From the NCBI RefSeq assembly GCF_004010195.1, contig NC_057755.1, forward strand, positions 957,023-1,021,022: a stretch of 64,000 nucleotides of DNA, written 5' to 3'. Source of the stretch: Chiloscyllium plagiosum. Lineage: Eukaryota. Both the position numbers and the translations under genes were made by a program. The notes under the pieces are model-generated. The model worked only from the letters and a program-made list of their open reading frames with translations, was not told the DNA's origin and searched no databases. Positions 6,037 through 53,069 of the stretch are shown here, in pieces. Position 1 is the stretch's first letter; every line of letters begins with the position of its first letter.

Positions 6037-6882
6037 TTACGTGACCAGTTGGTGCATTGCATTCCTGAACTTGACCAGAGACACGGCATAAATTGAAGGG
6101 TTCATACTGCAGCTGAAATCCTGGATGAGGTATCCAATTGGTGCACGAACACCAAAAGTTGTTCCATTAATGATTTAGTATCAGAAAGTTGTAATGTGCA
6201 CGAACCACAGAAATATGAAGCTGGTCGATATGGTGAAGAGGGTAATCACTGACTTCCCCCGGCTCTCCAACTCTGCGTCTTTTTTACTGTCTCCTGGACT
6301 CGGACCCCTCAGAGTCTTGCGGACTCGATTAACTACTAAGATGTACCTGGCCGTCAGAGTGTGCATCATCAGAATTAACACGAGTGAAATGGAAGGTATT
6401 AAAACGCTGTGAAATCTGTTAAATCACAGCCACCTGGGATCAGCAAAAAGAAAACTTTATTTTCCTCGGCTGTACCACGGACCATTGTCAATTTTCATCC
6501 CAGGTTGAAACAGAAAATAGAAGAGAAAATTTTTTGAACCGAGCAGAATGCCAATTTTGGCTAGAGTCACAGCCAAGGCATTCCCTGCCCGATATTTTCT
6601 CTTCATTGTCAGACAGCAAATGGCCACAAAACAATCAAAGGCGAAAAGGATAGTGAACCAGACAGAACAGTCTCTGGCTGCACGAGCCAGGACAAAGATA
6701 ACTGCAAGTAGAGGTGAGGTCCAGGAAACACCTTGGGAAGTAAAAAATATTGATTTCCCATGGTATGACGTGCACGAGAATAAACAGTAGATCCAACATT
6801 GCCATGGTCATCAGGCATTGCGTTGTGCATTTAGAGAGTCCACATATTCCACGCGTGAGAACCAAAATCAACAAGAAATTAA
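6037..6882 (-). pseudogene. GPR139-like class A GPCR pseudogene copy 1, exon 2
   Basis: Reads NFLLILVLTRGICGLSKCTTQCLMTMAMLDLL, then after a frameshift ARAARDCSVWFTILFAFDCFVAICC, then NGPWY followed by TAA, and later KSVITLFTISTSFIFLW. The acceptor reads AA instead of AG at 6883-6884. Homologous to copy 2. Confidence 0.88.
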
Positions 6883-7954
6883 TTGACATTAACGGAGGTA
6901 GAATGCAAATTGGAAATTAATGATAAAGCATTCACTGCATCTGCCCAAAAAAAGCATGGATCGTAATAGTACCAAAAAGGGTTAGTTAGGGAAGGTCTAA
7001 GGTCAGATCTAAAAATGAAAGCTCTGAGCCTGACTTCAAAAATGCTCACTTCCAATTTACCAGCCGGGTGGGGGTGGGCGTGGGGGTGGTAAGGGGAGTG
7101 TAGTGAATTGGCAGATGCCAAGGGCACATAATTTTAATGTGAAAGGGCTGAGTTTTAGAGGGCATTTGAGTTAAAGGCTTTCATCAGAGAATACTGGGTA
7201 CCTGGAATGCACGGCTTTGGAGGGTAGTTGAAGGAGTAAAACTAAAATCTTTAACATCTCCTTGGCTGAGCGTTCAGGATCACTCTTCAGGACATATTCA
7301 ACTGAAGAGGGATCGCTCGACTCAAAACGTTAACCATGCTTTCTCCCCGCAGATGCTACCAGACCAGACAGGTTTTATTTTTTGTTTTTCTTTGAAATGT
7401 TTCATTGAGGATGTAAATCTTTGTCTTAATATTAAGTTTAACTCTGACTGTCTGGGGTTCAAGAATTCCTAGAAGGTGTAGTGCATTCAGCCCTTTGAAC
7501 CTGTATTGCCATTCGACATTGTGGTGGCATATTCCCAACAGCAATGCTTGCTTTCGGTCCATTCCCCTTGGTACTCCTAAAATTGCAGAACGTACATGTC
7601 ACACACATTTAAAAAATCTCAGAGTCTGAGGGGGGGCGGGGAGGTGGAATGTTGTGACTGGGAGCATTATCTCTTCCTCTATCACATGACCATCAGGATA
7701 TGAGTCAATCTGAGGATCATGAACCTGGAGTCCCATCCCAAGACTCGGTTTTTGCTGACTTTATATTTCCTGCCCTCTAACCATACGCTGTCCACACTCT
7801 TATGTTACCTCTGTTGCCAAGAATTCATTCTCTCGTCAGCAACGTCGAACATAGCACTTCCCCAATTTGGTCTGGAAATTCGCAATCTACTTGCACAATC
7901 TATGTTAAAGATTGCAGTTGCAAATCCAACTGCGACTGCACCTAATTCCAAAGT

Positions 7955-8850
7955 CATTGGGATCATACAGCACAGAAACAGACCCTCCGTACCGACTACA
8001 TATCATAAATTGAGCAAGACCCATTTGCCAGCATTTCATCCATATCCGATTCATCTGCCCATATAGATGTCTTTGTAATTGAACCTGTCTTCATTACTTC
8101 TTCTGGCAGCTTATTCCATAAACGCATCACCCTCTGCATTGAACACGTGACCTCCGGGGTTCCTTTTAAATCTTTACCCTATCAGTTTAAGACGATGTGT
8201 TCCAGGTTTGGGCTCCCCTACAGTGAGGAAAAAACAACCATTCGCTATTCTCCCGATCCGTGCCCTTCATGACTTTGTAAACTTCTATAAGGTGACCTCT
8301 CAGCCTTCAATGCGCCATACAAAATAGCCCTAGCCTATTCAGCCTCTCACTACAGTTCAAACCCTCCAATCCTGCTAACAGCGTTGTCAAACCTTTCTGA
8401 ATCTTTGCAAGTTAGCAACATTTTTCTGTTAACAGGGAGATCAGGATTGAATGCAGCATTATATAAATCACCTCACTAATCTCCTGAGCAGCAGCAACAT
8501 GACGTCCCAACTCCTATACTCAATGTACTGTGAAGGAAGGTGAGCTTGCTAAAACACTGTCTTCACCATTCTGTCTGACTGCGACTCATCCCTCTCTGTT
8601 CGGCAAAATATCTCAAGGCCCAACCATTAAATGTATAAGTCCCGCCCTGCTTTGCCTGACCAAAATACAACATCTTACATTTATCCAAATTAAACTCCAT
8701 CTGCACCTTTTCGTTCCAGTGCCCTGTTGTACGCTAAAGTAACCTTTTGTACTGTTCACTACGCCAATTATTCTGGTGTCATCTAGAAATTTGCTAATCA
8801 TCGCTGCCATATTCACATTCAAGTCATTTATGTAAGTGATGAAAAGGTCG
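7955..8850 (-). mobile_element. Old CR1 3' fragment in copy 1 intron
   Basis: Decayed RT region LFITYINDLNVNMAAMISKFLDDTRIIGVV and CR1-type 3' UTR near 7955-8050. Confidence 0.75.
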
Positions 8851-9069
8851 TGGAACAAACACTTGCACCATACTGCTGTTCAAAGACTTCAAAGAATAGC
8901 TATCGAAATAGTGGCGTGCATTCAAGTCAACATCCCTAAAGTAGTGACATGCCTCAGCAGAGTGTAAACTTCACTCTATTTAGGAAAGGAAGAGGACAGA
9001 ATGCAAAATATTACAATACAGCGAGTGCTACATGCATTTGAAAACTAGGGCTGAGCCTTGCACTACTCT

Positions 9070-9246
9070 CTGGTAAGAGAGGGATGAGTGGTGGTGTAAT
9101 CTGATTGTCTTGTGCCTCTGCCAATGACAGAGATGAAGAAGGACAATCCTTCAATGGTAACCTGAGCCAGTGCAAGAAATGGACGCATGCTGTTGACATC
9201 ACGCTGCAATGCAAAGTAGCTATCCAGCCAATTGAGCTAACCGACC
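9070..9246 (-). mobile_element. tRNA-derived SINE (decayed)
   Basis: Minus strand begins ggtcggTTAGCTCAATTGGctgg (A-box-like), followed by a degenerate B-box region and SINE body. Confidence 0.55.
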
Positions 9247-10098
9247 ACAAAACACCACAGTACACATTTAAATAAAAACAATGTCTTAAAGTGTCAAGCG
9301 TTCAGTGCTGCAATTTGGTCGGAAGGGATATTTTCAAAGATTCCTTGGAAAACAAGCATTCAAATTCGATCAATGCATTTGGGAGCTCAGAGCGACAGAT
9401 TCACAAATATGTAAAATAACGTTAACAGTCCAACAAAGCAATGCAATTGCCAATTTAGGCCACACACTCATTTCCAGAAGTCAACTGGAATACAAAGAGT
9501 TAATATTTATCTACTTTGGAACATTTGTGGGAGCACGCTGTGTTTACTGGTTCGATTTCTGGTGAACACATCAAAACAACATGAGTTGATGCACTGGACA
9601 ACATGGAATTATAAGATGGAGCATGATAACGGAACTGAGAAACATTTGTTTCATCATTAAAACACATGCCACTATCTAAACTCTCTCTTTTAACATAATG
9701 ATTAACTTCAGAAACACGGAGATGTGCACCAGTTAATTAATCAAAACGAAATGCACCCTAAGTGCTTTAGCACTTGCTACATACTATTTCCACAGTTTAC
9801 AACACTCTATTCCTAAGTGACTAAAACTCCATTGAAATTCTCCAAAATCTCTGATTAAAATGGAGATTTCCAGAAGCTTCCAGGTGGAGATGAATTACCT
9901 AATGGGAAATTTAATCCTCTCGCAATTCCTGCTTAGTCTGCGATGCTGGGGATTCTGTGGTCTGAATCTAAATCACTGAATGCCTGTCCCTTTGCGAAGG
10001 TGGGCACAACCTGCCCATGTATCACTGTCAAGGGGAGAGTGAAACCGCAGACTACCCTCAGACAGAGTCACAAAAGGTCAACGGTGCAAGGCACTTAC

Positions 10099-10165: not shown

Positions 10166-11989
10166 TTCCTGCGGAAAACCCTTTGTGCAAGTAATCTCTC
10201 TGTTATAAACACTGAGGCAATATATTTCCAAAGCCTTTCATTTATTCCTGATGCTACAGCCTGGGAGCAGTCACGTTACTACACCATTCAATTGTATTAT
10301 TGATCAATTTGAGCAAACAGCTGACGATCGTGAATTAACCCCAAGTTGTGACAGAATATTTTTCAAACAGAGGTATACTGAATGATGCAAATCTCAATCG
10401 GTCAATATCAAATATTGGAAATTGCATCCACGATACACTAATACTAACCGTTCCACTTTGAAATCTCCTTTGATTTTAATGTCATCCTTCCCTTGAATTT
10501 GACAATTTCATAATCAAATTCCGGCTGTTAAATGTCTCTCTGGGAACTGTTCTTCTCAACAGTGGGATATGGTTTGCCTGATTAACAGCGGCTGTTCCAT
10601 AAAGAGATGGTAGTTGTTCAATGGAGATGATGTGTTGAAGTTGTCAATAAATCCAGCATCGCAATAGAATTTCTCAAATTGCGCAGTAGCGTCTCAATCC
10701 ACTATAATTTCACAAATTAAAACAAAACTTTTAACGAGTCAAATAACTCGCTGGAAAATATTCTTAAGGGTGATACAAGCTTCAATCTATACAGATTCTC
10801 CGAGAAGTTGAAACTCTTCTGGGGATGTTTCAGACCTAACTGCGAGTCACACGCAAGCTGTACAGCAGCAGATGGGCGTTAATATTTCGCGGTTCCCCCA
10901 GTGTACTGGACATGTTCAGTGAAAAAAACGTAAAACAGCTGATCGAGGAAGTGACGGAGTCGTTCGTAGGGAAATGGAGAGGTGAGCACAGTGAGGAATT
11001 TGCAGTGACAAGGCTGTAGAAATGACAAAAATTAGTATCGTTTAAGTTGGTGTCAAAAGTATCAGCGAGCTCAAGCAGTGTCGGGGAAACGGGACTTCGT
11101 GTCAGGACTGAAATAGTACAGAAAACCGAGAATGCGAATAAACATGTCTATTTCAGCTTGTCAGGACTGATTTCGTGGGTGCCACAAGGAACGTTAATCA
11201 AGACAAAGCTATTAATAATCTGTGTCAACGACTGAAATGATGTGATCATGTGTTTCATTTTCTGAGAACACTCGATTCGGTGAGACAGTATCATACAAGG
11301 AGGACACAGAAACCCTGAAATTAGGAAGTGCGGGTTCAGTGAGTGAGTGACAAACAAATAGTCTGTGCAACGTAAGCTACAGAAATCCTAAGCATTGTTC
11401 GTTCATTTCAATCTTGAAAAGATTTCAGACTATTCTTAAATTTATAGATGATGTTCCTAAATGTCGAACTAAAAGCAATAAGAAGCCTTTCTGTGCACGC
11501 ATGCCACCAATGTCCATTTTTTTCTGGAAAACTTTACTCCTCTCAGATCTTACTAAAGCTCAAGAGTTTGTGTGAATTCACGTCCTTGCCATTGAACCGT
11601 TGTTTTTCAGCATTCATTCTCTGGGTACTTTGCTGCACTCAAATGGACATGGACTCCCAAGCCTCCACTCTTTCTTGCCTCTCCCTGTTCATGAAGTCAA
11701 TGTCGATTCTGCGATAACATCGAGTTTCGTCAGTGGGCAAACCTTAAACAGCTGACTGACGGACTCCTTCAGGATCATCTGTCCAGACTTGACACAGTTC
11801 AGAAAGAAATGTTAACTCAATAGTTCATTCGTTCAAGAAGATCCCATAAAAGCTGCAGGACATCTTGGGGGAAGGTTGGGGTGGGATAAGGACAAAGGTG
11901 GGAGCAGGAGCTGTGCATAGTGAAGACCGCGTGGTCCTGGGCCACATTGGCGCCAACAATGTTCGTTCTTGAAACAACTCTTGAAATCG

Positions 11990-12188
11990 ATCAGCAATCA
12001 CTCTTTACTTACAATTGCATGGCCCTTAACAATAGCTCTCACTGAGTCAGGCATTCTGCATCACAATATTCCTTACATTCACCCTGCTGTGTTTAGCCAG
12101 ATATCTCTGACGGGATCAGATTGAAAGCCCAATCAGAGAACTCATATCCTATGAGGTCCAGCTGGCTGACCTCATGAAAATCACTGCA
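11990..12188 (-). mobile_element. Old solo-LTR-like element shared among duplicated units
   Basis: Minus strand starts tgcagtgattttcatgaggtcagccagctggacctcataggatatgagtt. Homologous copies on + at about 44760-44815 and at 46285-47830, the latter split by a CR1. Confidence 0.5.
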
Positions 12189-13094
12189 GTTAGAAATAAT
12201 GATGTGTTCTTGAAAGTAGAATTGACATAGTCAGGCAAGAAATCGACATGCTGATTAGGCCGCTGAACATGTGGATGGAAATATTTGGTGGCAGGAGGAA
12301 GGGCTTTGGTTGGCTCGGCTTTTTCTTTAATTTCTGGGGTTGTTGCGATCTGAAAACATTGAACAGGTGGGTTTCATTTTAACGGGATGGAAATTGCTAC
12401 CCATCTCGGGAAACATGGTACTGTTGTTGAGGAATATTTAATCAAATAAGTCAGTCTGTGAATCTGTGAGCGAACTTAGTTAGGAGGAAAATGAAGCCGG
12501 CCACGTGAAGTTGAAAGTCTGTAAGTGAAAGAGGAAAGCAGCAGAAACACATTCTGGATCTACAATGATGCTGTTCTTCAGAATCCGAGTCTTCAGGAGA
12601 AAAAAACCTCCCTCACATACCTAACAGATTCAGGGGCAGGGCTCATTTGGAGAGCTAATTTGTGATGTTCAGGAGATCTTCAATAATGTGAATATGAAGT
12701 GATGCAATTAATGTCAAAACCTCAACCACATTTTGTGATGATGCATGAGGAATTTAAGTGGAATCAGATTGGAACAGTTCATCAAAATTTTGAACTGTCT
12801 ACAAACACCGATATACTTAAGTAACAATGCACAATTAGAAGGATTAATTTATTTCATCTCGCAGAATTGAATTAACACAAGAGCGCAGAAGTAAATATGC
12901 CGTAATTTATTATCTTTTTTCAAAAAAAAATCCACACCAAATGAGACAGAATTATGAAACAATATAATTGTATTTGGGAAGAATAGCCATAAAATCCTCA
13001 GATTCTTTATTAAGATGGAGAATGAAGAAATTGAATTTGAAACTTGGAACCCTGAATCTAAATAAAGAGGACAACAAGGAATTAAATGGGCAAA

Positions 13095-13470
13095 AAAAAT
13101 TATTCCGTACTCACTGGACAGGCAATATTATTGTTGCCCATCAGGCAAATCCAATTACAGGTCTTGTCCCCAAAGCCAGTTTTGGAGAGTATGTCGCACG
13201 TGTTGGTGTGCGATTATCTGTCAAAGGCTTTCTGCTGGTCCAGGCTGACAAGGCAGGTTTCTAAGCTGACTAATTCACACATAGGCAATGATATCGCTAA
13301 TGAGCCAGAGGTTCTCAGAGATCCTCCTGACCAGTACAGCACAGGCTTGGTCGGGGTGAATCACTGATCTCACAGTAGACCTGACCTAGCTGGCGATGAT
13401 CTTAGGCAGGATTCTGTAAACTGCATTTAGCAGTGAAACCAGTCATTAGTCCTCCCTGTCGCCTTCTAAT
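13095..13470 (-). mobile_element. L1/Tx1-clade RT fragment
   Basis: Minus translation LVSLLNAVYRILPKIIAS*VRSTVRSVIHPDQACAV..RISENL..DIIAYV..CLVSLDQQKAFDR. Inverted paralog at 44990-45345. Confidence 0.8.
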
Positions 13471-14029
13471 TTTAGATGAGAGGTATGATAAATTTCTTGT
13501 TGGATTCACACAGACTACCTGTTCCATGATGTTGGCTGTTAAGATGTGACCTCCGCTGCTCTGTGATTCCGCCCCTCTGGCTGTTATTGGAACTGCAGAT
13601 CCGTCGCAACATGCTGGAGGAGTTCAGCAGCACCCCCACAGGGTCAAATTCTGTATTACTGATGGGAAGACAATTGACTAATACAGTATTTACGTCTGAA
13701 TAGGAACAGCTACCATACGCAACAGTATTCACATACAAGCATGGACAGTTCTAACATACAGCAATATATGGATATAAACTGGAACATCTCCAATAAAAAC
13801 AATATTAATGTTCCAAAGCACAATAATATTGCATGTCAACACAACCAGCTCTAATGCACAACATATTTGTACAGATACAAACAGCTTCAACATATAACAA
13901 GACATTATATATATATAGGACATAAAACATGAAATAATTTGCATATGAAGGACTTATGGGAAGGAAGTGAATACACTATTGCTAAATTTGTAGATAACAC
14001 TAAAGTAGGTGTGAAGGAAAGTTGGAACA

Positions 14030-14810
14030 TTGCATGTGCTTACTTATGTACGGGAATGGTGGTGATCATCTTGAAGAAGATGGGGATTCAGCTTGTTCGA
14101 TGGAGAGGTTGAAGATGTCAGTGAATACCTATGCCAGTTGGTCCATACAGGATGTAAATGCAGGTCGAGGACACCATCCAGGCCCGTCGGTTTCCTTGGG
14201 TTGACTCACTGCAAGACCATTCTGACATGTGAGGTGGTGAACGAAGGAACAGGTGCGTATGGGGTTATTGGGGCAGACGTCACTGCGCCCCTGGCATTCT
14301 GCTCAAACCGAACAGCGAAAGCTTTGAGCTCCTCATGGAGGGATGTGTCTTTGTCTGCTAGCTTGCTCTGCTTCAGTTTGTATTCTAAAATGTTCCTTCG
14401 ACCTTGCGATAGGTGGCAGCAGCCTATTTGGTAGGTATGGCCCTCTCCCGTGGTCTGGTACACTTTCTTGGCATTCCTGATGGTTCGGCGGAGGTCATAT
14501 CTGCATTCCAAGAATAGATTTAAATATTTCCACTAGAATGCTGCCCGTCAGATCTTCAGTAGGAGAGGATTTCCTGATTCACTCAAGGTTTATTCTTGGG
14601 GAACACTCGAATTGGCTTCTTTAATATGCAATCCTCCATGCATTCGCCTATGATGTCCGTGATGGTCATCCATGTTTTCCACTAACAACTTGAACACGGT
14701 CCTGTCCACAAGTTCCAAACAGTTCCAGAGACTGTCATTCACAGCCTCCGATGACGATTTTACTTCCTTTTGTGAACAATCCTCCCATTTCAGCTTCTAT
14801 TTGGAAGCAC
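14030..14810 (-). mobile_element. Rex1/Babar-type LINE fragment
   Basis: RYDLRRTIRNAKK..SLHEELKAFAVRFEQ..VNPRKPTGLDGV..DQLA*VFTDIFNLS. Confidence 0.75.
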
Positions 14811-14815
14811 TGTCC

Positions 14816-14937
14816 ACATAAGACCATAAGACATAGGAGGGGAAGTATGACCATTCGGCCCATCGAGTCCACTCCGCCATTCAATCATGGATGATGGGCA
14901 TTTTAACTCCACTTACCCGCATTCTCCCCGTCGCCCT
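14816..14937 (-). mobile_element. Short CR1-type 3' tail insertion
   Basis: (cataagac)n tail plus ccattcggcccatcgag stem-loop typical of CR1 3' ends. Confidence 0.65.
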
Positions 14938-15114
14938 ATGTCAGAGAATGAAGCAAGACAGAGAGATGTCAGAGAGATTAGGAGCTTAGGGCACAGCCTC
15001 AGAATGGAGGCACGACCCTTGAAACTGAGATGGCAATGAATTTCTTCAGACAAAGTGTGGTTAATCCGTGGAAATCATTGCCACAAAGAGTTCTGGAGGC
15101 CAGGACATTGAGCG

Positions 15115-15760
15115 TGTGATGCTGTAGCTCATTTACCAAGGTTGTGTTGCCTTGTATTTTTTTTTTAATTTAAGGTGCTTGGAAATGCAGCAGTTCCAGG
15201 CTGTCTAGTTTGGATGGGTTGTCGGGCCAATTTCATGATAGCTAAAAGACACTGCCTCAGGCAAAATAATTTCAATTGTCACAGCATGTACAATGAAAGG
15301 GGAGTGTACAGTTCTCACTGCTCAGGTTATTTCTGGTCTGGTTTAGTTTGGTTTGTTGTTTCCAACAGTCAGTTTTTCAGACTGCTGCTGAAAGGAACAG
15401 CTTCATGTAAAAATCTCTGTCTGACATCTCTCCCAATATCTCACGATACTGTGTTTTTGATTTTACCCGTTTTGCCGTAAGTTGTTAATGGGGCTTGTTC
15501 AAGGAATTGAAGCAAAATGTAAGTTGGTATCATCTGTTGGATTTTCGGATAGGTCAAGTTATTCGGTATTCTGTTAACTTTTCTTTGTGTTACATTCGTT
15601 ACTCTGTAAGTAAATTATAATTTATTTAAAACCGAGGAATATTGACCAGCTCCACCACTCCTGGAATATCCACTTTACTCCTGCTCCAAACAAATAGAAA
15701 ACATAGGGTCTGGGCGACCACCTTGAAATGTTTTGAGAGTGTCTGACCTAGTCCATAACA
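15115..15760. mobile_element. Solo LTR (TG...CA)
   Basis: Begins TGTGAT and ends ATAACA (5/6 inverted match). Degenerate 4-bp TSD agcg/aatg. Interrupts an otherwise contiguous CR1 3' end and is absent from the paralog at about 34220. Confidence 0.7.
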
Positions 15761-15860
15761 AATGTATTAAAGATTTGGAGATGCCGGTTTTGGACTGGGG
15801 CGTACAAAGTTAAAAATCACACAACACTAGGTTATAGTCCAACAGGTTTAATTGGAAGCA

Positions 15861-15895
15861 CACTAGCTTTCGGAGCGACGCACCTTCATCAGGTC
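15861..15895 (-). ncRNA. Minimal hammerhead ribozyme motif (minus arm)
   Basis: Reverse complement gac-CTGATGA-A-GGTGC gtc GCTCC-GAA-AGCT-A-GTG, with one mismatch in stem II. Confidence 0.65.
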
Positions 15896-15905
15896 ATCAG
15901 ACAAT

Positions 15906-15940
15906 CACCTGATGAAGGAGCGTCACTCCGAAAGCTAGTG
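15906..15940 (+). ncRNA. Minimal hammerhead ribozyme motif (plus arm)
   Basis: CAC-CTGATGA-A-GGAG cgtca CTCC-GAA-AGCT-A-GTG. Stem I CAC/GTG, palindromic stem III AGCT, predicted cleavage after CUA (15937). Confidence 0.72.
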
Positions 15941-16489
15941 TGCTTCCAATTACACCTGTTGGACTATAACCTGGTGTTGTGTGATTTTTAAAAATGTATT
16001 AAAAGTAGAGATGTTTGCGTTCCTTATTGGTAAGGGAATCAAAGGTTATTTGGAGAAGGCAGGAGAATAGAATTGAGAAACAGATCCTCCAGGATCATAT
16101 TGCAAAGATGACTTAATGGGCTGAATGCCTAATTACTCTCCAGCACTATATGGCCGAATGATCCAATATATACGAACATATGTTTATGGACACAAGCAGC
16201 TCCAACATTAAAAAAAATGAATATATTGCATTCTTTATTCAAACTTGGACGAAACAACTGGAATCCTGCCTTTCAGTGAACATTCCCCTGTCTTGCTTCA
16301 TTCATTAAGGCTATGTCCTTGAACTGAAGTAATAGTTTAGTTTTCAGGGTGCAGGAGGTGCAGATATTGGCAATTAGATATTTCCCCAGTTGGAAAATAT
16401 ATGCCATTGAGAGCAATCTATGCACCGTGACCTGCTGTAGGGTTCACCTGTCCTTTTTCAGGGCAGGGAGTCTCATGATCAGACAGAGA

Positions 16490-18410
16490 CAGAACCACAC
16501 CCAGAGGGCCACAGAAACGCATCCACTCCCTCACACACACATACACATACACGCAGAAACGAACCCTCACACAGAAATACAGCCAAAGTGAGATATGGGA
16601 AGTTATTGACAAACACACACACTCACATACATATGCAACTCACAAACATGCACACAGGCACAATGACATAATCAAACTGAAATGTGGGAAGACACTTACG
16701 CAATGAATACAGAAACATTCCCACACCCACATAACACACATAGGAATACAATCAGAGTGCCGAAGGGGTACACCTACTCACACATGCATGGGTGTACACG
16801 CACACATGCACACATGAAAACAGGTATATTGAGACATATAGGAACACACACAAGAACGGACAGAATCCACACACATCCACATACAAAGAAATACAGTCAT
16901 ACTGAGATAGTGGAACAAATCTACACACACACACATATGTACAGGCATACTGACAGAGAATGGAACACACCCATGTGCATATGAAACGCCTGGATATCTG
17001 CACTCACAATAATACAGTCACACTGAGATATAGGAACTCAAATGCACACAGGCACAGAATCACACCGACACCCTCACACACATATAAGAACGAACTTAGA
17101 GTAAGAGACATTACATACCAACCTGCAAGAATTGACAGAAATTTCTTACACATATACACACGCGCATTCAAACACAGTTACTGAAACACAACCGCAATTA
17201 GATATGGGCAGTGAGCGACACTCAGAAACAGATGCCTCACCCACAGAGAGGCACAGAGAGGTCCTGCTGGGGGCACAGAAAGATCTTGATACACATACAG
17301 ACAGCCAAACAGAGTCTGAACAGTACACTCACCCGCTTATGCAAGAGCACAGCCAGGCAGACACACATCCCTCACTACCATAATAAGATTCTGATAGTCA
17401 GAGACACACACGAAGTCACAGAATTATCATGACATGCTGACAGTAACACCCACACATACTCACCCACACACACGCACACAGACAGACAGACAGACGCACA
17501 CACAAACACACAGACATAGGATTGGTACCCCACAAACAGCGTGCACACATGCACATGAGCAAAACAAACACAGATACGCAATCACACAGACACATACACC
17601 CACGTATAAAGCACTCACCTTCACAGAAACACCCTCATTCAGAGGGAATATCATTCCCAAACACATAAACACATGACTGTCTCGTCACCGAAATACTTCC
17701 AAACACACAAAAAGGGAAACCCACACTCAGATGCATAATTACACTCAGAATGTGTCACACTCAAAGATATATCTAACGACCAAAACCAAGGGACACACGC
17801 ACACACAGAATGAGATCCCCACAAAAGCATTGAAACCCCTCCCACACACAGAGACGCAAGGGCACTCTCACACACTGAAAGGGAAACGCATGAAGATCCC
17901 TCCCGCCTAGCCACAAGGAAAGAAATGGGAGAAGATCAAACTCCAGCAAACTTACTTACAGTAATGTGTAAAGTTATTGCTGCCTGTATCTGTGCACTTT
18001 GTATTTTGCAAAATCACTGCCTGGGGAAGAATGAATGAATGAACGGATCAGGAAGGGATTTGAGTCAATGCAAGTGAGCATGTATTAAACTGAGACAAGT
18101 GTCTGACATCGTGAATATGAGAAAACGACACAGAGAGCGCAAGACAGACAGACAGAGAAAGAGATAGTCAGAGAGACAAAGAAGGATAGACGTAGATAAA
18201 GACAGAGAGACAGACAGACACATGGGTGGAGAGAAGAAGAGACAGACAGAGACAGAACGATACAGGCGGAGAGACACACAGAGTGAGACAGATAGAGAGA
18301 CAGAGAGAGAGAGACTGAGCAAGAATCTGAGAGATGAGGAACAGCAGGAGAGGGGAAGAGAGGAAAAGACAAAGACAGATAGACAGAGGCATAGAGAGAA
18401 AGAAAGAAAT
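16490..18410. repeat. CA-rich then GA-rich low-complexity block (duplicated unit)
   Basis: Degenerate CA repeats to about 17900 and GA/GACA repeats at 18120-18410. Paralogous to 1-1260 and 34700-36760. Confidence 0.85.
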
Positions 18411-18815
18411 ATCCATGTGAATGGGACAGAAGATGGATTCAATAAACACACTCAGATAGAAGTGTGCATGTAACAATAATTCATTCAAGTCAGCACCCAG
18501 AGGCTTTCTCGTCTCTTCATAAAGTATTTATTTTGAGCTGAACAGAGAAATTCTGGCAATCATCATTGTGCAGGAGGGACTGTCTCTGTCCCTGCCCCTC
18601 CTCCCCTGCAGAGGAAATGGAGAGACTCTTCCTGCCAGTCTTTAACACTCATCCACAGGGTGTCCGTGAAGACCCAATGTTCCAGCTGAACCCATCACTC
18701 ACAGCCAGTCCATCACTTTCAATAATTCTTGCAGCCTTTTTCCATCCTGCAATGGCAACACTGCAGTTGCCTCTGGAATTTTCTCAGTTGTTATGCTGAG
18801 TCAGAAATGAAGGAT

Positions 18816-19681: not shown

Positions 19682-20504
19682 CTGAAACAGACAGGAGGCA
19701 AAATACAATACGGAAATGAATGACTAAACGTTATCCACGTTGGCCCAAGGTGCAATGGAAGATCTTAGCATCAAGCTGGGTCAGCTCGAGGGTTCAGATA
19801 TCGAGTTTGAACATGACAGCTCCAGCCGCCTGCCTCACTTCGAAGCTGCTCAATCCTGGGCTTGATTAAGTGTGGGCAGGAAATCAACCGATTGCAGATG
19901 TGGCAATTATTTTTAGGTAAAAAGGAAAAGGTTCAGAGGGGATTCGATGAAGAGGTTTTGACCCAGAGAGTGGTGGGGGTCCAGTAATTCAGTACCTGAT
20001 AGGATACTGAAAGCAGGAAACCTCACAAACTTTAAAAACAACCGAGAAGAACACTTGAGCTGTCATAACATTCGAAACTACGAGGCTAGTGTTGGAAGGT
20101 GGGGCGAGTGTAGATTTTGTTTAGCTTCGAAAGCAGAAACTGGATGGAATAAAGGACCTCTTTTTCCCTATTTCTGGTTCCCTATTTCTCAGAATTCCTT
20201 CTGGGAGGCAGGTTGGGAAGTGAAACATTTAATGAAATAAATGAAAGGGATTTGAATGCTGCAAACATGAAACAGAATCAAACATAACTGGCAAAACCCA
20301 ATAGGTACGGCCGCATATGTGGGATAAGAAACCGAGTTATGGAATCACTGTTCATCAGAACATTTCGTCTGAACATGGATCACTGAACTCAAAACATCAT
20401 CTCAGGTTTCTCCCCGCACAATATTCTTTCATTGCAAACAGAAGGCAGGTTTTCATTTCTAACAGGGAATTGAGATTTGAAATGTTAATTTTCACATAGT
20501 ATGG

Positions 20505-23500
20505 AACACCTATTCCTTCTATTGTAGGAAAGGTTTTGGAAAGGATTATAAGAAATAAGATTTATAATCATCTAGCAAGCAACAATTTGATTTCAGATAG
20601 TCAACATGGATTCGTCAAGGGCACGTCGTATCTCATAAACCTCATTGAGTTTTTTGAGAATGAGACCAAGCATGGAGGTGAGGGAAGGGCCTTTAGCGTG
20701 GTATAGATGGACTTCAGTAAAATCCTTGATAAGTTTTCACATGATAGGCTGTTGGAGAAAATGCAGAGGCATGGAAGAGAGCGTGATTTACTGGTTTGGA
20801 ATAGAAACTAGCTTTCTGAAAGAAGGCTGCGAGTGGTGGTTGATGGAAAATATTTATCCTGGTGTCCACTTACTGGTAGTGTGCCACAAGGATCTGTTTT
20901 GGGACCACTGGTTTTTGGTCATTTTCATAAATGACTTACATTCAGGCATACGTGAATGGATTAGTAAGTTTGCAGACGGCACTAAATTCAGTGGAGTAGT
21001 GGACAGTTTGGAAGAATGTTGGTTGCAGGGGGACTTACATAAACTGCAAAATGGGGCTGAGAGGTGGCAAATGGAGTTCAATGCGGCCTAAGTGAGGTGA
21101 TGCACTTTGGGTAAAAAAATGCGAAGGCAGAGTACTGGGACAATACAAAAATACATGGTAGTGAGGATGTGCAGAGGAATCTTGGAGTTCATGGACATAG
21201 ATCCCTGAAAATTGCCACCCAGGTTGATAGTGCTGTTAAGAAGGCATACGGTGTGTTAGGGTTTCAATCGTAGAGGAATTGAGTTCTGGAGCCGCAATAT
21301 CATGCTGCAACAAAACAAAACGCGAGTGGGGCCACACTTGGAATATTGTGTACAGTTCTGGTCACCATATTTCGGGAAGGATGTGGAAGCATTGGAAAAG
21401 ATGCAGAGGACATTTACCAGGATGTTGCCTGGTCAGGAAGGAATGTCTTCTGATGAATGGCTGAGATTTGGGCCTGTTCTCATTCGAAAGAAGAAGGCGA
21501 AGGGGGTATTTCATAGGGACATACAAGACGATCAGAGGATTAGATAGGGTAGACAGTGAAAGTATTTTTCTTGGGATAATGACGTCAGCTTGTACGACGG
21601 GGCATATCAACAAATTGAGGGGTGATAGATTTAAGACAGACATCAGCAACAGGTTCTTTACGCAGGAAGTGGTAAGGACGTGGAATGCCCTACCTGCTAA
21701 TGTAGTTAACTCAGCCACATTAGGGAGATTTAAACAATCTCTGGATAAGCACATGGACGATGATGGGATAGTATAGGGGGATGAGCTGAGAATAGTTCAC
21801 AGGTTGGCGCAACATCGAGGGAGCCGACCAGGGAGAAGGCAATTCTGGATCTGGTATTGTGTAACGAACCAGAATTGGTCAGAGACCTCGAAGTGAAGGA
21901 GCCATTAGGAAGTAGTGACCATAATACAGTAAGCTTCAATCTGCAATTTGAGAGGGAGAGGGTACAGTCGGAGGTGATAGTACTTCTGTTGAATAAAGGG
22001 AACTATAGAGCTATGAGGGAGGAGCTGGCCAAAGTTCAAAGGTGCAATACCTTAGCAGGGATGACCGTGGAGGAACAATGGCGGATATTTCTGTGTATAA
22101 TGCAGAAGTTGCAGGATCAGTTCATTTCTAAAATGAAGAAAGATCCCAGGAGGAGGCATGGGCGGCCGTGGCTGACGAGGGAAGTAAAGAAACATATAAA
22201 GTTAAAAGAGAAAAAGGATAACATAGCTCAGATAAGTGTGAAAACTGAGGACTGGGAAGCTTTTAAAGAGCAACAGAGGATTACGAAGAAGGAAATACGC
22301 AGAGGAAAATTGAGGTACGAAGGTAAATTGGCCAAGAATATTAAGGAGGATAGTAAAAGGTTTTTTAGGTATGTGCAGGGCAAATAAAAATGGTTAGGAC
22401 AAAACTTGGGCTCTTGAAGACAGAAACAGGGGAATATATTACTAGGAACAAAGAAATGGCAGAAGAATTAAATGGGTACTTCAGATCTGTGTTCACTGGG
22501 GAAGACACAAGCAATCTCCCTGAGGAAACAGTAGCTGAAGGACCTGAACTTAAGGGAATTTATATCTGCCAGGATTTGGTGTTGGAGAGACTGTTAGGTC
22601 TGAAGGTTGATAAGTCTCCGGGGCCTGATGGTCTGCATCCCAGGGTACTGAAGGAGGTGGCTCGGAAATCGTGGATGCGTTGGTGATTATTTTCCAGAGT
22701 TCAATAGATTCGGGGTCGGTTCCTGAGGATTGGAGGGTGGCTAATGTTATATCACTTTTTAGGAAAGGTGGGCGAGAGAAAGCAGGAAATTATAGACGAG
22801 TTAGTCTGACCTCAGTCGTGGGAAAGATGCTGGAGTCTATTATAAAGGATGAAATTACTGCACATCTGGATAGTAGTAACAGGATACGACAGAGTCAGCA
22901 TGGATTTATGAAGGGGAAATCATGCTTGACTAATCTTCTTGAATTTCTTGAGGATGTAACCATGAAGTTGGACGAGGGAAATCCAGTAGATGTAGTGTAC
23001 CTGGACTTTCAGAAAGCTTTTGATAATTCCCACACAGGAGGTTAGTGAGTAAAATTAGGGCGCATGGTATTGAGGGCAAAGTACTAGTTTGGATTGAAAA
23101 TTGGTTGGCTGATAGGAAACAAAGGGTAGTGAATAACGGCTCCATTTCGGAATCGTAGGCAGTGCCCAGTGGGGTGCCGCAGGGATCCGTGCTGGGACCG
23201 CAGATTTTTACAATATATGTTAATGATATAGAAGACGGTATCAGCAATAACATTAGCAAATTTGCTGATGATACAAAGCTGGGTGGCAGGGTGAAATGTG
23301 ATGAGGATGTTAGGAGATTACAGGGTGACCTGGACAAGTTAGGTGAGTGGGCAGATGTATGGCAGATGCAGTTTAATGTGGATAAATGTATGGTTATCCA
23401 CTTTGGTAGCAAGAACTGAAGGCAGACTACTACCTCAATGGAATCAATTTATGTAAAGGGGTAGTACAGAGAGATCTGGGTGTTCTTGTACACCGGTCAA

Positions 23501-24235
23501 TGAAGGCAAGCATGCAGGTACAGCAGGTAGTGAAGAAGGCTAATAGCATACTTGCCTTCATTACAAGAGAAATTGAGTATAGAAGCAAAGGGGTGCTTCT
23601 GCAGCTGTACAGGGCCCTGGTGAGACCACACCTGGAGTACTGTGTGCAGTTTTGGTCTCCAAATTTGAGAAAAGACATTCTGGCTATTGAGGGAGTGCAG
23701 CGTAGGTTCACGAGGTCAATTCCTGGAATGGCAGGATTACCTTACACTGAAAGACTGAAGCGACTGGGCTTGTATACCCTTGAGTTTCGAAGATTGAGAG
23801 GGGATCTGATTGAGACGTATAAGATTATGAAAGGATTGGACACTCTGGCAGTAGGAAACATATTTCCACTGATGGGTGAGTGCCGAACCAGAGGACACAG
23901 CTTAAAAATTCGGGGTAGACCATTTAGGACACAGCTCAGGAGACACTTCTTCACCCAGAGAGTGGTGGCTGTGTGGAAAGCTCTGCCCCAGAGGACAGTG
24001 GAGGCCCACTCTCTGGATTCATTTAAGAAAGAGTTGGATAGAGCTCTCAAAGATAGTGGAATCAAGGGTTATGGAGATAAGGCAGGAACAGGATACTGAT
24101 TAGGAATGATCAGCCATGATTATATTGAATGGCGGTGCAGGCTCAAAGGGCTGAATGGCCTACACCTGCACCTATTGTCTATTGTCTATTGAAACGCCTG
24201 TTCTGCGCTGTATTGTTCTATATTCTATGTTCTAT
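20505..24235 (+). mobile_element. CR1 LINE 3' portion (host element), tail split by a nested CR1
   Basis: RT remnants (SQHGFVKG, INDL..WISKFADGTK, GPHLEYCVQFWSP). The tail gcgcaacatcgaggg stops at about 21821 and resumes as gcctgttctgcgctgtattgttctat at about 24196-24235. Confidence 0.85.
21822..24191 (+). mobile_element. CR1 LINE (same subfamily as 2054-5264), 5'-truncated in the APE domain
   Basis: EPLGSSDHN, KSPGPDGLHP, YLDFQKAFD, GVPQGSVLGP, ISKFADDTK, RPHLEYCVQFWSP. (CTATTGT)n tail at 24171-24191. Few frameshifts or stops. Confidence 0.93.
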
Positions 24236-24269
24236 TTGTTCGAATGTTCTTCATATTTCGGGCATAGTT

Positions 24270-26775
24270 AGAATCATAAAGATGTATTACAAAGAAACAA
24301 AACCTTTCATCCAAATTGTCCATGCTGACCAGGTATCCTATATTAATCTAATCCCATTTTCCCCCATATCCTTCTAAGTATTTTCTATGAATTTACACAT
24401 CCAGATACCAATTAAATGTTTTAATTTCACAGGCCACTATCACTACGTCTGGCAGTTCATTCCAAACACATGCCACTCTTTGCGTGAAAAAAATGCCCCT
24501 TAGTTCCTTTTTAAATTTGTCTTCTCTCAACCTAAACCTCTGTACTCTAGTTTTGGACTCCCCAAACCCAGGAAAAGATCTTGTCTGCTTACCTTGTCAA
24601 TGCCCCTTATGATTTGATAAACCTTCGCAACGTTAACCCTCAGTCTTCGACTCTCCACAGAGAAAAGTCACAGCCTATTCAGCCTCTCCCTGTAGCTTAA
24701 ATGTCCCAACCCTGGCAATGTCCTTGTAAATCTTTTCTGAACCCTTCAGGTTTCAAGACATCCTTCCTTTTGGAGCGATAACATAATTGCACACAATATT
24801 GTTAAAGTGGCCTGATCAATGTCCTGTACAGGCATAACATGATCTCCCAATTCCAATACTCAAAGCTCTGACCAATAAAAGAATGTATACCAAACCATCT
24901 TCACCATCTCATCTTCCTGATACATCATTTTCAAGGAACTATGAACCTGCACTCCAAGGTCTCTTTGTTCTGCAATACTCTCCAGGACCTTACCATTAAC
25001 TATATATGTCCTGCTATGGTTTGCCTTTCCAAAATGCAGCACCTCATATTCATCTAAATTAAACTCTATCTACCACTACTCGACCAACTGTCCCAACTCA
25101 TCAATATCCAATTGTGCACTGAGGTAACCTTCTTCGCTATCCACTCCAACTCTAATTTTGGTGTCACCTACAAACTTACTTCGTGAATATATATGAATGA
25201 GGAAAATGTGTGGTTCCAGTTCTGATCCTTGTGACACACCACTGATCACAGGCCTCCAGTCTGAAAAGCAACCCTGAACCACTACCCTCTGCCTTCTACC
25301 TTGGAATAATTTCTGTCCCAAAGACTGGCTCTCGCTTCGTTCAATGCTGTCTAACCTTGCTAACTACTCTACCATTAGGAATCTGTTTGAACGGCTTCTT
25401 GAAGTGCTCATAGATCGCATCCACCGTTCTTCCCTCATCAATCCTCTTCGTAACTTCTTTAAAAAACACAATCAAGTTTGTGAGACATGATTACCCACGC
25501 ACAGAGGCGTATTGACTCTCCTTAATCCGTCCTTCCCTTTCCAGGTACATGTAAATCCTGTCCCTCATAATTCCGTCCAACAATTTGCCAATCACCGACG
25601 TCAGGGTCACCAATCCATAGTTATCCGGCTTTTCCTTACCACCTATCTTTAAGATTGGCACCACTAGAGCGAACATCCAGTCTTCCAGCACCTCACAAAT
25701 ATCTCAGCAAGGGTCCAGCAATCGCTTCCCTAGCTTCTTGGGTACATCTGATCAGATCCTGGGAATTTATCCACCTTTATACGTTTTTAGACTTCGAGCA
25801 TCGCCTCTTTTGTAACATGGACAGTTTTCCAGATGCCACCATTGATTTTCCCACAATCTGTATCTTCCGTGTCTTTCCCTCCACATATAGGCTGCCTTGC
25901 TGATCTTTGAGGAGACTAATTTTCTCCTTCGTTACGCTTTAGTCCATAATCCCATTGGTTCGTTCTTAACCTTATTTGCCAAAGCAATCTAGTGTCCACT
26001 TTTTGACCTCCTAATTTCCCTCTTAAGTGTTTTCCTACTGCCTTCATACACTTCTAAGTATTCACTCGATCTCTGCTGACTATACCTGACATATTTGTCT
26101 TTTTTTCTTACCAAAACCTGAATTTCCTTCGTCATCCAGTATTCCCTACACCTACCAGAATTGTATTTCACCTGAAGAGGAACATACTGTCTCTGGACTT
26201 TCATTGTCTCATTTTTCAAGGCTTCCCATTTTCCACCTGTCCCTTTACCTGAGAACATCATTCCTCAGTCAACGTTTGAAATTTCTTGCCAGGTACCATC
26301 AAAATTGGCTTTCCGGTACTTTAGAACTTCCACTTTTAGATCAGGTCGATCATTTTTCATTTATGTATTAAAACTAATAGAATAATCGTTGCTGGCCTCA
26401 AAGTGGTCCCGCACTCAAACCTCAGTCATTTTCACTGCCTTACTTCCTATGAGTAGGTCAAGGTTTGTACCTTCTCTTGTAGGTACATCCATATAATGAT
26501 GCAGAAAATTTTCTTGTACCCACTAAACAAATAACTCTCCAGCTAAACTCTTAACACCACGGACATCTGGGTGTACGTTTGGAAAGATAACATTCCGAAC
26601 CATTACTATTCTATTATTTTTACAGATAACTGAAATCTCCTTACAAAGCTTTTTCTAATATTCCACCTGACCATGGTGGGGTGGTCTGCAATACAATCCT
26701 CAAAAAGTAATCATCCCTTTGTTGTTTCTCAATTCAACTCAAATAACTTCCCCACATGTATTCCGGGGAATAGAG
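24270..26775 (-). mobile_element. Older CR1 LINE ORF2 fragment
   Basis: DWRPVISGVSQGS, EKPDNYGLVTLTS and KREIRRSKSGH in fragmented minus ORFs. 3' UTR at about 24270-24400. Confidence 0.85.
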
Positions 26776-27450
26776 TCAATAATATGGTGCTGGTAAAGCA
26801 CAACAGGTTAGGAAGCATCTGAGGAGCAGGAAAACCGACGTTTCTGGCAAGATACATTCATCGGGAATTGGCTGGGAACCCTGGGGTGTGGAAATATACA
26901 TTGGAGGCGGGTGGGGCTGGGAAATGGTAGCTGAGAGTGCGATAGGTAGGTAGAGGTGGGAGTAATAGGTCAGAGTGGAAGGTGGATCGGACAGGAGGGA
27001 AGGAAAAAGGGCAGGCAGGGTGGTTCTGAGGCTGGAATGGTTTAAGTTAGGGTTGGGATAATGAGGAAACTGGTTATATCCACATTGATGCAATGAGTTT
27101 GGAGATTCCTGAGGCAGAAGATGAGGCGTTCTTCCTCCATGCGTTGGGTGATAAGGGAGTGGCGATGTAGCAGGCCCAGGACCTGCATGTCCTCGGCAGA
27201 GTGGGAGGGGGAGTTAATATGTTCAGTCAAGGCGAGGTGGGGTTGGTTGATGCTGGTGTCCTGGAGATGTTCTCTGAAGCAATCCACGAATCGACATCCT
27301 GTCTCTCCAATGTAGAGGAGATTGTATCGGGAGCAACGGATGCAGCAAATGACATGTGTGGAAGTGGAAGTGCAATTTTGATGGATATGAAAGTCTCATT
27401 TAGGCTATTCGATGGAGGTAAGAGGGGAGGTGTGCACGCATGTTTTGCAA
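26776..27450 (-). mobile_element. Penelope-like element 3' end (GIY-YIG C-terminal region + pLTR)
   Basis: DCFREHL..HINSPSHSAEDMQVLGLLHRHS..EEERLIFCL..INVD. pLTR with a decayed hammerhead (CCGATGA..GAAACGTC) at about 26835-26866. Confidence 0.82.
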
Positions 27451-33470: not shown

Positions 33471-33474
33471 TTTC

Positions 33475-40450: not shown

Positions 40451-40529
40451 CTTTAATGGGATGAGAACAACACTGCCGAGGACAGCAAGTTTTTTTGCCC
40501 ATCCCAGAGAGCAGTCAAGAGTAAACCAC

Positions 40530-49770: not shown

Positions 49771-52700
49771 ATAAGTGTCAGGCAACATTGAATTTATTTG
49801 AATCTTTCTGAGGGTCCTCTGTAGGTTAACTCTGCCACCAACAATAATACATGGCCGTGTTGTGCCCAAACGTCACACAGTGGCAGACTATCAGTAATTT
49901 CGTATCAGATTAGAGACAAACCATGGAATCCCCATCATCGCAGATTCTGCAGGAACTGCCAGGGAAACTTTATCTCTGCTGGGAAACTTCCAGAAATCTC
50001 CATTTCATTCGGAGACTACGAAGAGTTTATGTGGAATAACGAAAAGGAATCACTTTGGAAACATATAAGCAGTGTTTTTTTATGTAGAGAGTGTAGAGTC
50101 ATTTAGTTTCAGTTTGTTTCTGTTTTTTGGGTGAATAAACAGTAGGCTTGTCTGTGCAGCGGAATTTAAAGGTTATCTTGGAATTATTTCTGCAATCACA
50201 GCAGTTTGTTTTAAGAATTGCTTTCGGCATTTGACTATAAACTGAATGGGTTTGCGCAAGAGCGATCCTTTGTTTATTTCTGATGCTTGCAACCCAGAAT
50301 GGTATTAATGGAGACTGAAAGGTTTGATGGAGAGGTCTGGAATTCGTGGTTACGGAAGAAATCCGCAACTGGGAAAGCTTTACTTAAACTTTTTATCAGT
50401 TTTCACATTTCGTTTAGTTCCAAGAAAACCCTGGAACTGAGTGAATGTGAAGGAAACGTGAGTTTTAGTAACTTACATTGCCTTCAAATGAAAATGTTGT
50501 GTTGGTCCCAGACAGAAGTGTTGTGACAAATAAAAGTGACTGTTTAAAGCTGAGTACATTGACGTTCGGGTATGTGATAGTTCCAGGAAGCAATTTCCCA
50601 CAGCTCCCATTTAGAAGTGCCAGTCACAAGTCATTTATCCAAGTGAGAGATACAGGGATTCTGGTCAGGATATTGCATGACGTTTATTTTCTTTGGAAAG
50701 GCACTGGGGGTCATGTTTTGTATAATATATAAAAGTCATTATTTTTGTTTCATTTATGCATTGTTTTGAGGTTAATGAGAATTATACATTTTCTGCATGT
50801 TCATTGCCTTTGAATTGGCGTCATAAGTACCTAGCTTGGTTTATTCTATTTTATCGTCATTTCTTTTGTAATAAACTGATGTCGAATCAATATTAACAGC
50901 ATTGTGTGTTTACAATTCAGCAAAAGATCACGTTGTTAAATCAAAACAAATAAGATTATGATCCATCAAGCTGGAGTTCTGTCGAGGAACTAGTTTGTTC
51001 TGTAATTAATCAGCTGGTATTAGAACAGACTTACTCCTGAAGAACTGATAAACTAACCCCACTGTTCAAATGGATTGTGCCACAACTATATCAGTCCAGA
51101 TCCATTATTTGCCGCCGACCCTGATCAGACATCTACACTGAGATGTCTTTCCATATTACCTCTCCGAAAGTTACTACTCTCTGACTCTGTATCAAAGTTT
51201 ATGCAAAATCAATCTGCTCAGGCCCTGCCAAAAGAGTAACACTGGAACTACATGAGTGCCTTCTAGCTGTAGTGTAGTGCACAGCATTGGTCATCACCAA
51301 GCAGTGAGTACAGAATTGCTCTGATCCGAGTATCAAAGAGATTTGCAAGAATGTTGTCAGTGTGTGGAAGTGACTGCAGCAGTGAGGAAAAGTGGATGGA
51401 TTCGGGTCATTTTCCCTGAACAGAGTGGAATGAGAGATGCCATGGTTCAGATGTACAAAATAAGCCGGCTCTTCAATGGAGACCTGTCTCTCCAAATAGA
51501 AAAACATTTACCAGGAGACACACAGTGAGTAAAATTGATGGGAGGATTATCGAGGACATGAGGCCTACCATTTCATTCAGAAGATGATGGTGTGTCTGGA
51601 ATTCACTCCGAATTTTGGGTGGTGACTTGAGGTGACCACACTCACCTCACTTAAAGGAATTCGGATCTGCCCCTGAGGTGTAGATTCCTTCGACACTATG
51701 GGCTAGGTGCTAGAAAGTGGGATCAGTTCACGTTGATAATTTATTCAGTTGATGTATACATGAATGAACTCTTCAGTGAAAAATCTTTCGAGCAGTTCTA
51801 TGGGTTAGTAGAAAGGCCGAGGATTGTAAAAGTGAATTCAAATGGTGGGTTAAGTGGTTTGTTTCTGTGTTGTCTGTTTCCACCACTGGGACATTGAGGA
51901 TTGTTAAAATGAATTCCAGAGGGCTTTGGCTACATTACAGTTGTTCCCTGAAGAAGTATTCGTAGCTTCATAATTTTTACAATGCCTGTGGAATTTTAAA
52001 TGGAGAGGAATAATATTTACTCTGTTTAGAACAAAGAAATTTATCAATTCATTAGCTTAATAATGCTCAACTTGTTTACTTATTCTCAATATAAAATAAA
52101 GGTTTTTTTTTTACAAAAGAGCATTGTTAACTCATATTGTCTATGAACTGCAGAGTGTTCGGAGTATCACTCTGAATATAAATTCTCCCTGAAATGATCA
52201 GAGCACAATAGTCAGTCAGAGAGAACTGAATATTATCATATCATATTTTATTATACAATGGATTGGAGCTGTCACTTTCAGTAAATGCAGTACTGACCTG
52301 TCTGCTTTATTTTCCATTGCATAGTTTATTCATAACATACCAACAAGCACGTTCAAACCAATTTGTGTCAGTTAATGAAGAGAATGAAATAAAAAGTCAC
52401 ATTTCCCGATTTACATTTTGCATTATTTGCTGAATCAATGTACAATCAAAATTAGAACATTTGCTGAACATGACAAGGAATTGTTCATTTTCGGAAACAA
52501 ACAATGAGGGATTCAGTGAGTTAACAGATCATCAGGCTATCAACACAGAGAGGGCTTATATTATAGTTTGTGCCAGTAATTGTGAAACACAAAAAAAGCA
52601 TTGTCGTCAAATAATTACATCTTCTCAATACAACTACTTATGTTTTTGCAGTGTAGTGACCAAATAATTCTAGGTATTCCTAACGGGAGAACAAGAAAAG

Positions 52701-53050
52701 TTTATGGCTGTAAGAGCTCTTTCCATTTTTGCGATATTTAAGGCGTCAGAGCTGACTTCTACCAAATCTTGAAAGAGTAATTATTGTTTTTTTTAAGCTG
52801 TTGCATTGTTTTGGAAATATGGGGAAAAGAACGAACAAAGCAATACATTCTATGAAAAGGTGGAACACGTGTGGGAGAGTTCACAGCACAGGAGCAGATA
52901 AGTGAATGGTTTTTAAGTGGAATCTTGGTGATATTTTTTGTGTAACTTTGCAAAAGTGCATAAAATGATTTTTTTTTTTAGTTATAGGTTTTATTGACTT
53001 CTGTATCGATTAAAATTTCAAAATATAACGCATAGACATTAAGTTAGCAT

Positions 53051-53069
53051 CTGATTGGAACAATTCCTG
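53051..53069 (+). pseudogene. GPR139-like GPCR copy 4, 3' remnant of exon 1
   Basis: CTG ATT GGA ACA ATT CCT G|GCAAGA. The following sequence aligns with the intron start after 49770. Confidence 0.55.

Follow-up and report, generated by a model that had tools for sequence, protein, structure and literature searches.

Disabled two-exon receptor genes in a 64-kb stretch of Chiloscyllium plagiosum DNA and the expanded class A GPCR family to which they are assigned

In this work, the window, that is, the whole 64,000-nt stretch of DNA that was analysed, was found to hold the remains of a cluster of two-exon genes of a class A (rhodopsin-like) GPCR family. We consider it about two-thirds probable (0.68) that the window is a patch of dead genes from a receptor cluster under birth and death, the intact kin of which form a sensor array. 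The locus itself consists of ordinary pseudogenes, its own copies would most likely make no receptor, and the importance lies in the family rather than in the four copies. A two-exon class A GPCR gene with a 22-codon exon 1 and a phase-1 intron in TM1 was duplicated together with its flanks into tandem and inverted units. The copies were then disabled separately, as splice sites were lost, frameshifts and stops arose and LINEs inserted. Four disabled copies were listed in a preliminary description of this DNA. This count holds for copies 1 and 2, which are complete two-exon dead genes, but copies 3 and 4 make up one remnant.

Copy 1 is encoded by the minus strand. The coding part of its exon 1 (10165-10099, 67 nt) has an open frame and a GT donor in phase 1, and is followed by a 3.2-kb intron (6883..10098) and by exon 2 (6882-6037), a pseudogene that runs from TM1 to the C-terminus. 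A fragment resembling a reverse transcriptase (LINE) lies in this intron at about 8205-8846, and compared with the intron of copy 2 about 2 kb are deleted internally. The acceptor of exon 2 is changed from AG to AA at 6884-6883, and the frame is shifted by a 2-nt deletion at 6701/6700. Both lesions had been described before, but the single stop reported with them has to be replaced by four internal stops (6459, 6426, 6183 and 6177). Furthermore, DRY is changed to DCF with loss of the DRY arginine, the ECL2 cysteine is absent, P5.50 is replaced by Ser, and 12 nt are deleted close to helix 8. Two pieces of copy 1 searched alone gave no match in Pfam. Five proteins of bamboo and epaulette sharks are the nearest relatives of the window copies and have the same early C-terminal stop, so that the DNA would probably be that of a carpet shark. 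This stop and the 18-nt gap of copy 1 in ECL3 were both considered as lesions and rejected; they are common to intact bamboo and epaulette shark relatives and are therefore subfamily traits.

Copy 2 is also on the minus strand. The 66-nt coding part of exon 1 (30249-30184) has a TGA at codon 4, a 1-nt deletion and a GT donor, the 10.5-kb intron (19682..30183) owes part of its length to LINE fragments (about 20512-21659, 22453-23958 and 24572-25837), and exon 2 (19681-18816) has kept an intact AG acceptor together with the DRY and NTLFY motifs. Exon 2 is interrupted by a single TGA (19457-19455), where the paralogues read Trp, and its N1.50 is changed to Ile. The stops, the 1-nt deletion and the preserved DRY that had been attributed to this copy were all seen in exons 1 and 2. 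NTLFY, which had been given as the TM7 motif of the cluster, is present in copy 2, but copy 1 has NPSIY. A comparison with the 7tm_1 profile had also been suggested; with copy 2 read through its stop it gave E 3.7e-15 (56.5 bits, cut-off 30.5), and the same read-through protein found homologues down to E 2.5e-107. An intact relative reached 72.9 bits with 7tm_1. The structure model of the intact protein P0008 (pLDDT 76.7) shows seven long helices and helix 8, and its TM-score against class A receptors is about 0.7.

Copies 3 and 4 are on the plus strand. The coding part of copy 3 exon 1 (49704-49770, 67 nt) has an open frame, ends in TIL and carries AT instead of the GT donor, and the 5' part of its intron (49771..53050, 3.3 kb) stops at a fusion junction. 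The junction together with the remainder of copy 4 exon 1 spans 53046..53069, with a microhomology of 4-5 nt, 19 nt of exon (53051-53069) and a GC donor. The copy 4 intron (53070..62849) is represented by homologous pieces at 53070-53359, 54256-54750, 59884-60505 and 61070-62849, interrupted by LINE sequence. Since the sequence reaching to 53050 can be aligned with the distal copy 4 intron (to 62849), it is the intron of copy 3, and since the 19 nt of copy 4 exon 1 abut this intron directly, copies 3 and 4 form a single fused remnant. A whole but eroded copy 4 exon 1 was tried and rejected, as its supposed 5' part is insignificant (36-159 of 200 shuffles score as high) and matches the distal intron instead. 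No third exon 2 was found within the 64-kb window by tblastn with seven intact homologues or by nhmmer, and the acceptor-side intron segment of copy 4 has no match before 64000. The spacing of copy 1 would put the start of this segment at about 63.8-64.6 kb, so the copy 4 exon 2 probably sits just past the window end (64000). Of what had been described for these copies, the AT donor of copy 3 is correct, and its missing exon 2 holds within the window only; the exon 1 of copy 4 is truncated to its last 19 nt as stated, but it now forms one remnant with copy 3. Similarly, an exon 1 of 67 nt ending in TIP had been regarded as shared, but the full length is found in copies 1 and 3 only, with TIL at the end of copy 3, and copies 2 and 4 have 66 and 19 nt.

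We hypothesize that a deletion with the 4-5 nt microhomology joined the copy 3 intron to the last part of exon 1 of copy 4, and that it would have taken out copy 3 exon 2 and the copy 4 promoter. The repeated unit (exon 1 end and 3.3 kb of intron) is arranged head to tail, and its join shows microhomology; this could also come from an internal tandem duplication inside one gene, with no deletion between genes. This is unlikely, because the copy 3 intron is nearer to the copy 2 intron (72.6-72.7% identity) than to the copy 4 intron (65.0-67.4%), and the split between copies 3 and 4 would accordingly predate that between copies 2 and 3, unless the rates differed.

Copies 1 and 2 are in tandem, and copies 2 and 3 are divergent with 19.5 kb between them; the exon strands and positions agree with the tandem and head-to-head arrangement noted previously. 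The upstream flank of copy 1 (10166..13524, minus strand) has homologous counterparts upstream of copy 2, as far as 31964, and upstream of copy 3, at 44926-46319 and 47642-49703. In copies 1-3, a putative AT-rich, TATA-like word precedes the ATG by about 80 nt. A search of the 4 kb next to copies 1-3 for a 26-bp upstream satellite gave no match. The spacer block between the tandem units (14017..18750, no strand assigned) has direct repeats at about 33170-36784 and 14-1888, and this recurring block is taken to mark a duplicated tandem unit of about 18 kb. At least 11.9 kb of the window resembles LINE-type reverse transcriptase, and the repeats of the window are presumably of the CR1/LINE and SINE types. 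The dN/dS between copies 1 and 2 in exon 2 is 0.86 (95% 0.61-1.22, 268 codons), and their terminal branches are 0.52 and 0.31, compared with 0.04-0.08 in four intact relatives of the same clade, which has 100/100 support. Copies 1 and 2 died long ago. The four dead copies, the repeated spacer blocks that flank the units, the extent of reverse-transcriptase-like DNA and the dN/dS near 1 would all fit a mostly neutral amplification, in which recombination-prone, LINE-rich DNA is copied passively, few members matter and the pocket is relaxed. We give this explanation a low probability in view of the family-wide evidence below.

The family was searched with copy 2 read through and X at the stop, which gave 283 matches. 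The best 120 of them are all elasmobranch and represent 13 species. Among these 120, N1.50 is most often at residue 24 (37 sequences) and at residue 23 in 8 more, the others being scattered or without the motif; residue 24 agrees with the 67-nt (22-codon) first exon of copies 1 and 3. The horn shark has at least 64 family members, 32 of which are on one 74.5-Mb contig. With a profile of 50 sequences, 131 representatives were obtained at 50% clustering and E up to 1e-30, a number in which fragments and bad models are counted. Of the family representatives checked for taxonomy, 18 of 19 are chondrichthyan, one of them from a chimaera. An Atlas search returned the same automatically named clusters and FMRFamide-receptor-like clusters, and nothing else. 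The family is predicted to have tens to hundreds of paralogues per cartilaginous-fish genome.

In a 58-row tree, copies 1 and 2 fall into a hemiscylliid clade of six rows (100/100), which is nested in the family of 43 rows (98/88), and the family and an amphibian/sturgeon orphan are sister groups (100/99). This tree omitted a long invertebrate row, the long skate row P0186, nameless family rows and many near-duplicates, and is limited in that it contains neither true GPR139 nor true GPR142. In a first quick tree of 108 rows, support for the family was weak because of one long invertebrate branch. Deep sub-clades span sharks and rays. The monophyly, the horn shark count and the elasmobranch origin of the best 120 matches bear out the earlier proposal of a lineage-expanded, fast-turnover class A family. 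A literature search, in which the coverage of subscription papers was thin, found no description of the expansion, and the available parts of PMC12208981 and bioRxiv 10.64898/2026.08.31.747588 contain nothing on the family. It is apparently undescribed so far, its proteins being placed in NCBI under an automatic name, and this misleading name hides the intact-looking horn shark paralogues.

The automatic name is GPR139, which is borne by 114 of the best 120 of the 283 matches. GPR139 and GPR142 are class A orphan receptors that L-Trp and L-Phe activate (PMC7318219 and PMC5430874, in excerpt). The GPR139 gene consists of two exons, and the zebrafish and human proteins are 70% identical (PMC7318219, in excerpt). 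Human GPR139 is the top PDB match of the family by sequence, with a profile E of 1.5e-16 versus 7.5e-10 for the next, and the resemblance is therefore real. Moreover, GPR139/GPR142 and the family are alike in the 7tm_1 domain, W6x48, a TM7 without the NPxxY proline and a two-exon gene. These likenesses would suit true co-orthologues of GPR139/GPR142 that sense Trp and Phe as nutrient or food cues, but we regard this as highly improbable. The identity to human GPR139 is about 25% (about 73 over 296 positions, counted by eye), and the agonist contacts are not conserved. Among the five contact residues given in the available part of PMC5430874, W6x48 is present in 63/63 horn shark paralogues, F3x33 in 9/63, H5x43 in 3/63, and R6x51 and N7x38 in 0/63, and none of the 63 has all five together. 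The family also lacks P6.50 and has a TM3-ECL2 cysteine pair, whereas in the alignment GPR139 has no cysteine opposite either. It has tens to hundreds of copies, in contrast to the one conserved gene of GPR139/GPR142. Furthermore, with the same profile, orphans of the coelacanth and a salamander score 174 and 169 bits, compared with 63.6 bits for human GPR139. In Foldseek with the P0008 model, neurotensin receptor 1 is first, the neighbours are peptide and chemokine receptors, and GPR139 is absent from the 46 chains printed of ranks 1-50. A lancelet query aimed at true GPR139 gave 11 rows, namely ten from lancelets and the query. The window genes are thus assigned as distant cousins and not as orthologues of GPR139. 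As the best human match, GPR139 justifies the label GPR139-like given at first, but GPR139/GPR142 identity or aromatic amino-acid sensing does not follow from it, given the low identity and the missing R6x51 and N7x38.

The nearer relatives are the amphibian/sturgeon orphan (XP_069092602.1 and relatives) and the coelacanth/teleost orphans (XP_005988539.1). They resemble the shark family in the third intracellular loop, in length and in the short N-terminus, at 27-33% identity. The amphibian/sturgeon orphan is automatically named 'probable GPR139', like most of the shark family in NCBI. In amphibians it forms one 90% cluster per species (20 amphibian rows), in contrast to the many shark paralogues, and its pocket is invariant and keeps F3x33, W6x48 and N7x38, with Lys at 6x51. 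In gar, fishes and coelacanth, genes close to GPR139/142 were named GPR210A/B (Rinne et al., 2019; PMC6504862, in excerpt), and the words 'shark' and 'cartilaginous' occur nowhere in the main text of that paper. The amphibian/sturgeon and coelacanth/teleost orphans are possibly these GPR210A/B sets. The conserved amphibian orthologue offers a direct handle on the ancestral ligand.

For the pocket, 17 positions were taken from the available part of the GPR139 paper (PMC5430874) and transferred through an alignment with a receptor that is only about 25% identical; two TM1 pocket positions were dropped because many gene models carry a wrong exon 1. Of the 64 horn shark sequences, 63 were full enough for this comparison. 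Their mean column identity is 0.51 in the pocket, 0.80 in the other TM positions and 0.88 on the intracellular face, with p 4e-5 for the pocket versus other TM and p 0.0016 for the pocket versus random outer-helix sets, values which overstate independence because the paralogues are related. In 22 amphibian sequences, the corresponding identities are 0.96, 0.82 and 0.72, and the overall identity of the horn shark and amphibian sets is similar (0.76 and 0.80). When seven of the 17 positions, picked after their variability was known, are read as a string, 58 distinct strings are found in the 63 horn shark paralogues and one in the 22 amphibian sequences. The core motifs are nearly invariant in the horn shark, with C3.25 in 63/63, R3.50 in 62/63 and the ECL2 cysteine in 62/63 paralogues. 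This pattern is that of a predicted ligand-diversified repertoire under birth and death, and the pocket variation itself may be compatible with positive selection or with relaxed constraint. One face is spared while the pocket varies, which neutral decay would not do. Together with the 64 or more long ORFs in one shark, the near-invariant core motifs, the deep sub-clades common to sharks and rays and the chimaera member, this argues against a mostly neutral amplification.

Returning to the sensor array as the preferred reading, we hypothesize that the family goes back to a single-copy receptor, the ligand of which was an aromatic small molecule or peptide. The cartilaginous fishes would have multiplied this receptor, the G-protein face being held constant and the pocket varied, so that the intact members would act as an array for varied outside ligands. 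OR, TAAR, V1R, V2R, T2R, FPR and MRGPR are vertebrate receptor repertoires under birth and death. The family is like them in its clusters, its many pseudogenes and a pocket that varies more than the remaining bundle and is set on a constant signalling face, as is typical of chemosensory expansions. It differs from them in its separate origin from GPR139-related orphans, in the intron in TM1 and in being known from sequence alone. In our own judgement, the chance that the intact members sit in chemosensory or somatosensory neurons falls slightly short of even, leukocytes or mast-like cells come next with a lower chance, and the remainder goes to other tissues or to mostly neutral copying. More tentatively, and at somewhat less than even odds, the cartilaginous fishes, which are regarded as poor in GPCRs and odorant receptors, could have an uncounted chemoreceptor repertoire in these members. 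It would be larger than the V2R family and built independently from the single-copy GPR139-related orphan still present in amphibians and sturgeon, with sparse expression in sensory cells of the olfactory, taste or skin type (or with an MRGPR/FPR role). The shark nose is dominated by V2Rs, the catshark having 34 V2R genes and a small olfactory repertoire despite the large noses of sharks, and the shark chemoreceptor surveys do not count the family in the accessible part (PMC10116579). In excerpts of two other papers, no GPCR is among the 50 most specific genes of the catshark olfactory library (PMC11979771), and cartilaginous fishes are said to show a 'relative paucity' of GPCRs (PMC8455134). 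If the members are indeed sensory or immune receptors, the shark chemoreceptor counts are incomplete.

An immune or tissue-surveillance repertoire, in which the receptors would sit in leukocytes or mast-like cells and detect microbial or damage peptides, differs from the sensory array only in site. Mammalian formyl-peptide receptors and MRGPRs sense microbial or damage peptides. The same pocket pattern fits this possibility, which we nevertheless hold to be doubtful. That the fold neighbours belong to the peptide and chemokine receptors is in its favour, but such neighbours do not discriminate among class A receptors. The dominance of V2Rs in the shark nose also speaks for it, and according to the available part of the whale shark paper, MAS1 and related receptors are absent from cartilaginous fishes (PMC8455134), so that their role would be open to the shark family.

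As for sequencing runs, two RNA reads of about 13 million (about 2% of one single-cell run) fell on copy 2 exon 2; both are less than 90% alike to it and therefore come from a paralogue. The same exon was covered by 339, 507 and 486 contig pieces from the DNA runs of three organisms, most of the pieces being less than 95% alike, and the Trp codon at 19455 is carried by 31, 41 and 31 contigs, which are short overlapping pieces and not gene counts. These pieces point to many paralogues but give no paralogue number. In run X4, which belongs to a second study, one 216-nt piece is identical to the window at copy 2 exon 2.

None of the public models of the five nearest intact relatives of the window copies (P0002, P0004, P0005, P0003 and P0007, from bamboo and epaulette sharks) includes the standard first exon, which is the 67-nt coding exon 1 followed by a phase-1 intron in TM1. 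In three of the five, the start ATG lies within sequence that is intronic in the window (19766-19682), and this intron-derived segment is open over 29 codons in all three. Another model begins with a LINE-like piece similar to the fragment in the intron of copy 1 (8801-8619; E 0.079), and the remaining one starts inside TM2. These non-standard starts are probably annotation errors; less probably, they reflect a genuine change to an intron-derived start.

The TM7 motif of copy 1 (6107-6093, minus strand) reads NPSIY, the canonical NPxxY form, in a dead gene, whereas position 7.50 is Thr in 61 of the 63 paralogues from the horn shark. The Pro-containing motif is probably the result of chance decay. 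In the amphibian and sturgeon orphan receptor that is sister to the shark family (P0233 group), nearly all of the 22 sequences carry N1.50>S and D2.50>N. The orphan is conserved and its pocket is invariant across the group, with no amniote or teleost sequence among the 25 matches listed in a word-limited search. Independently of the shark genes, this receptor is worth deorphanising.

Part of the upstream flank of copy 3 is locally duplicated (44104-44809 and 44926-46319), and both pieces match the upstream flank of copy 1. Copies 2 and 3 have divergent promoters, and the stretch separating these contains a tandem array (38054-39425) in which a 45-bp unit is repeated about 26 times, with one further short piece. 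Its minus-strand open frames encode a 15-residue Gln/Glu/Pro-rich repeat, for which the Atlas search gave a hit below 0.9 and no family. Six copies of the roughly 100-nt end of a short interspersed repeat, which we take to be a SINE, are found at 5427-5541, 5783-5882, 33343-33475, 35782-35924, 40528-40645 and 55493-55609. The longest of the window open frames listed, with 510 codons on the minus strand (41724-43253), matches RVT_1 at E 5.7e-34 and encodes a reverse transcriptase of the LINE type.
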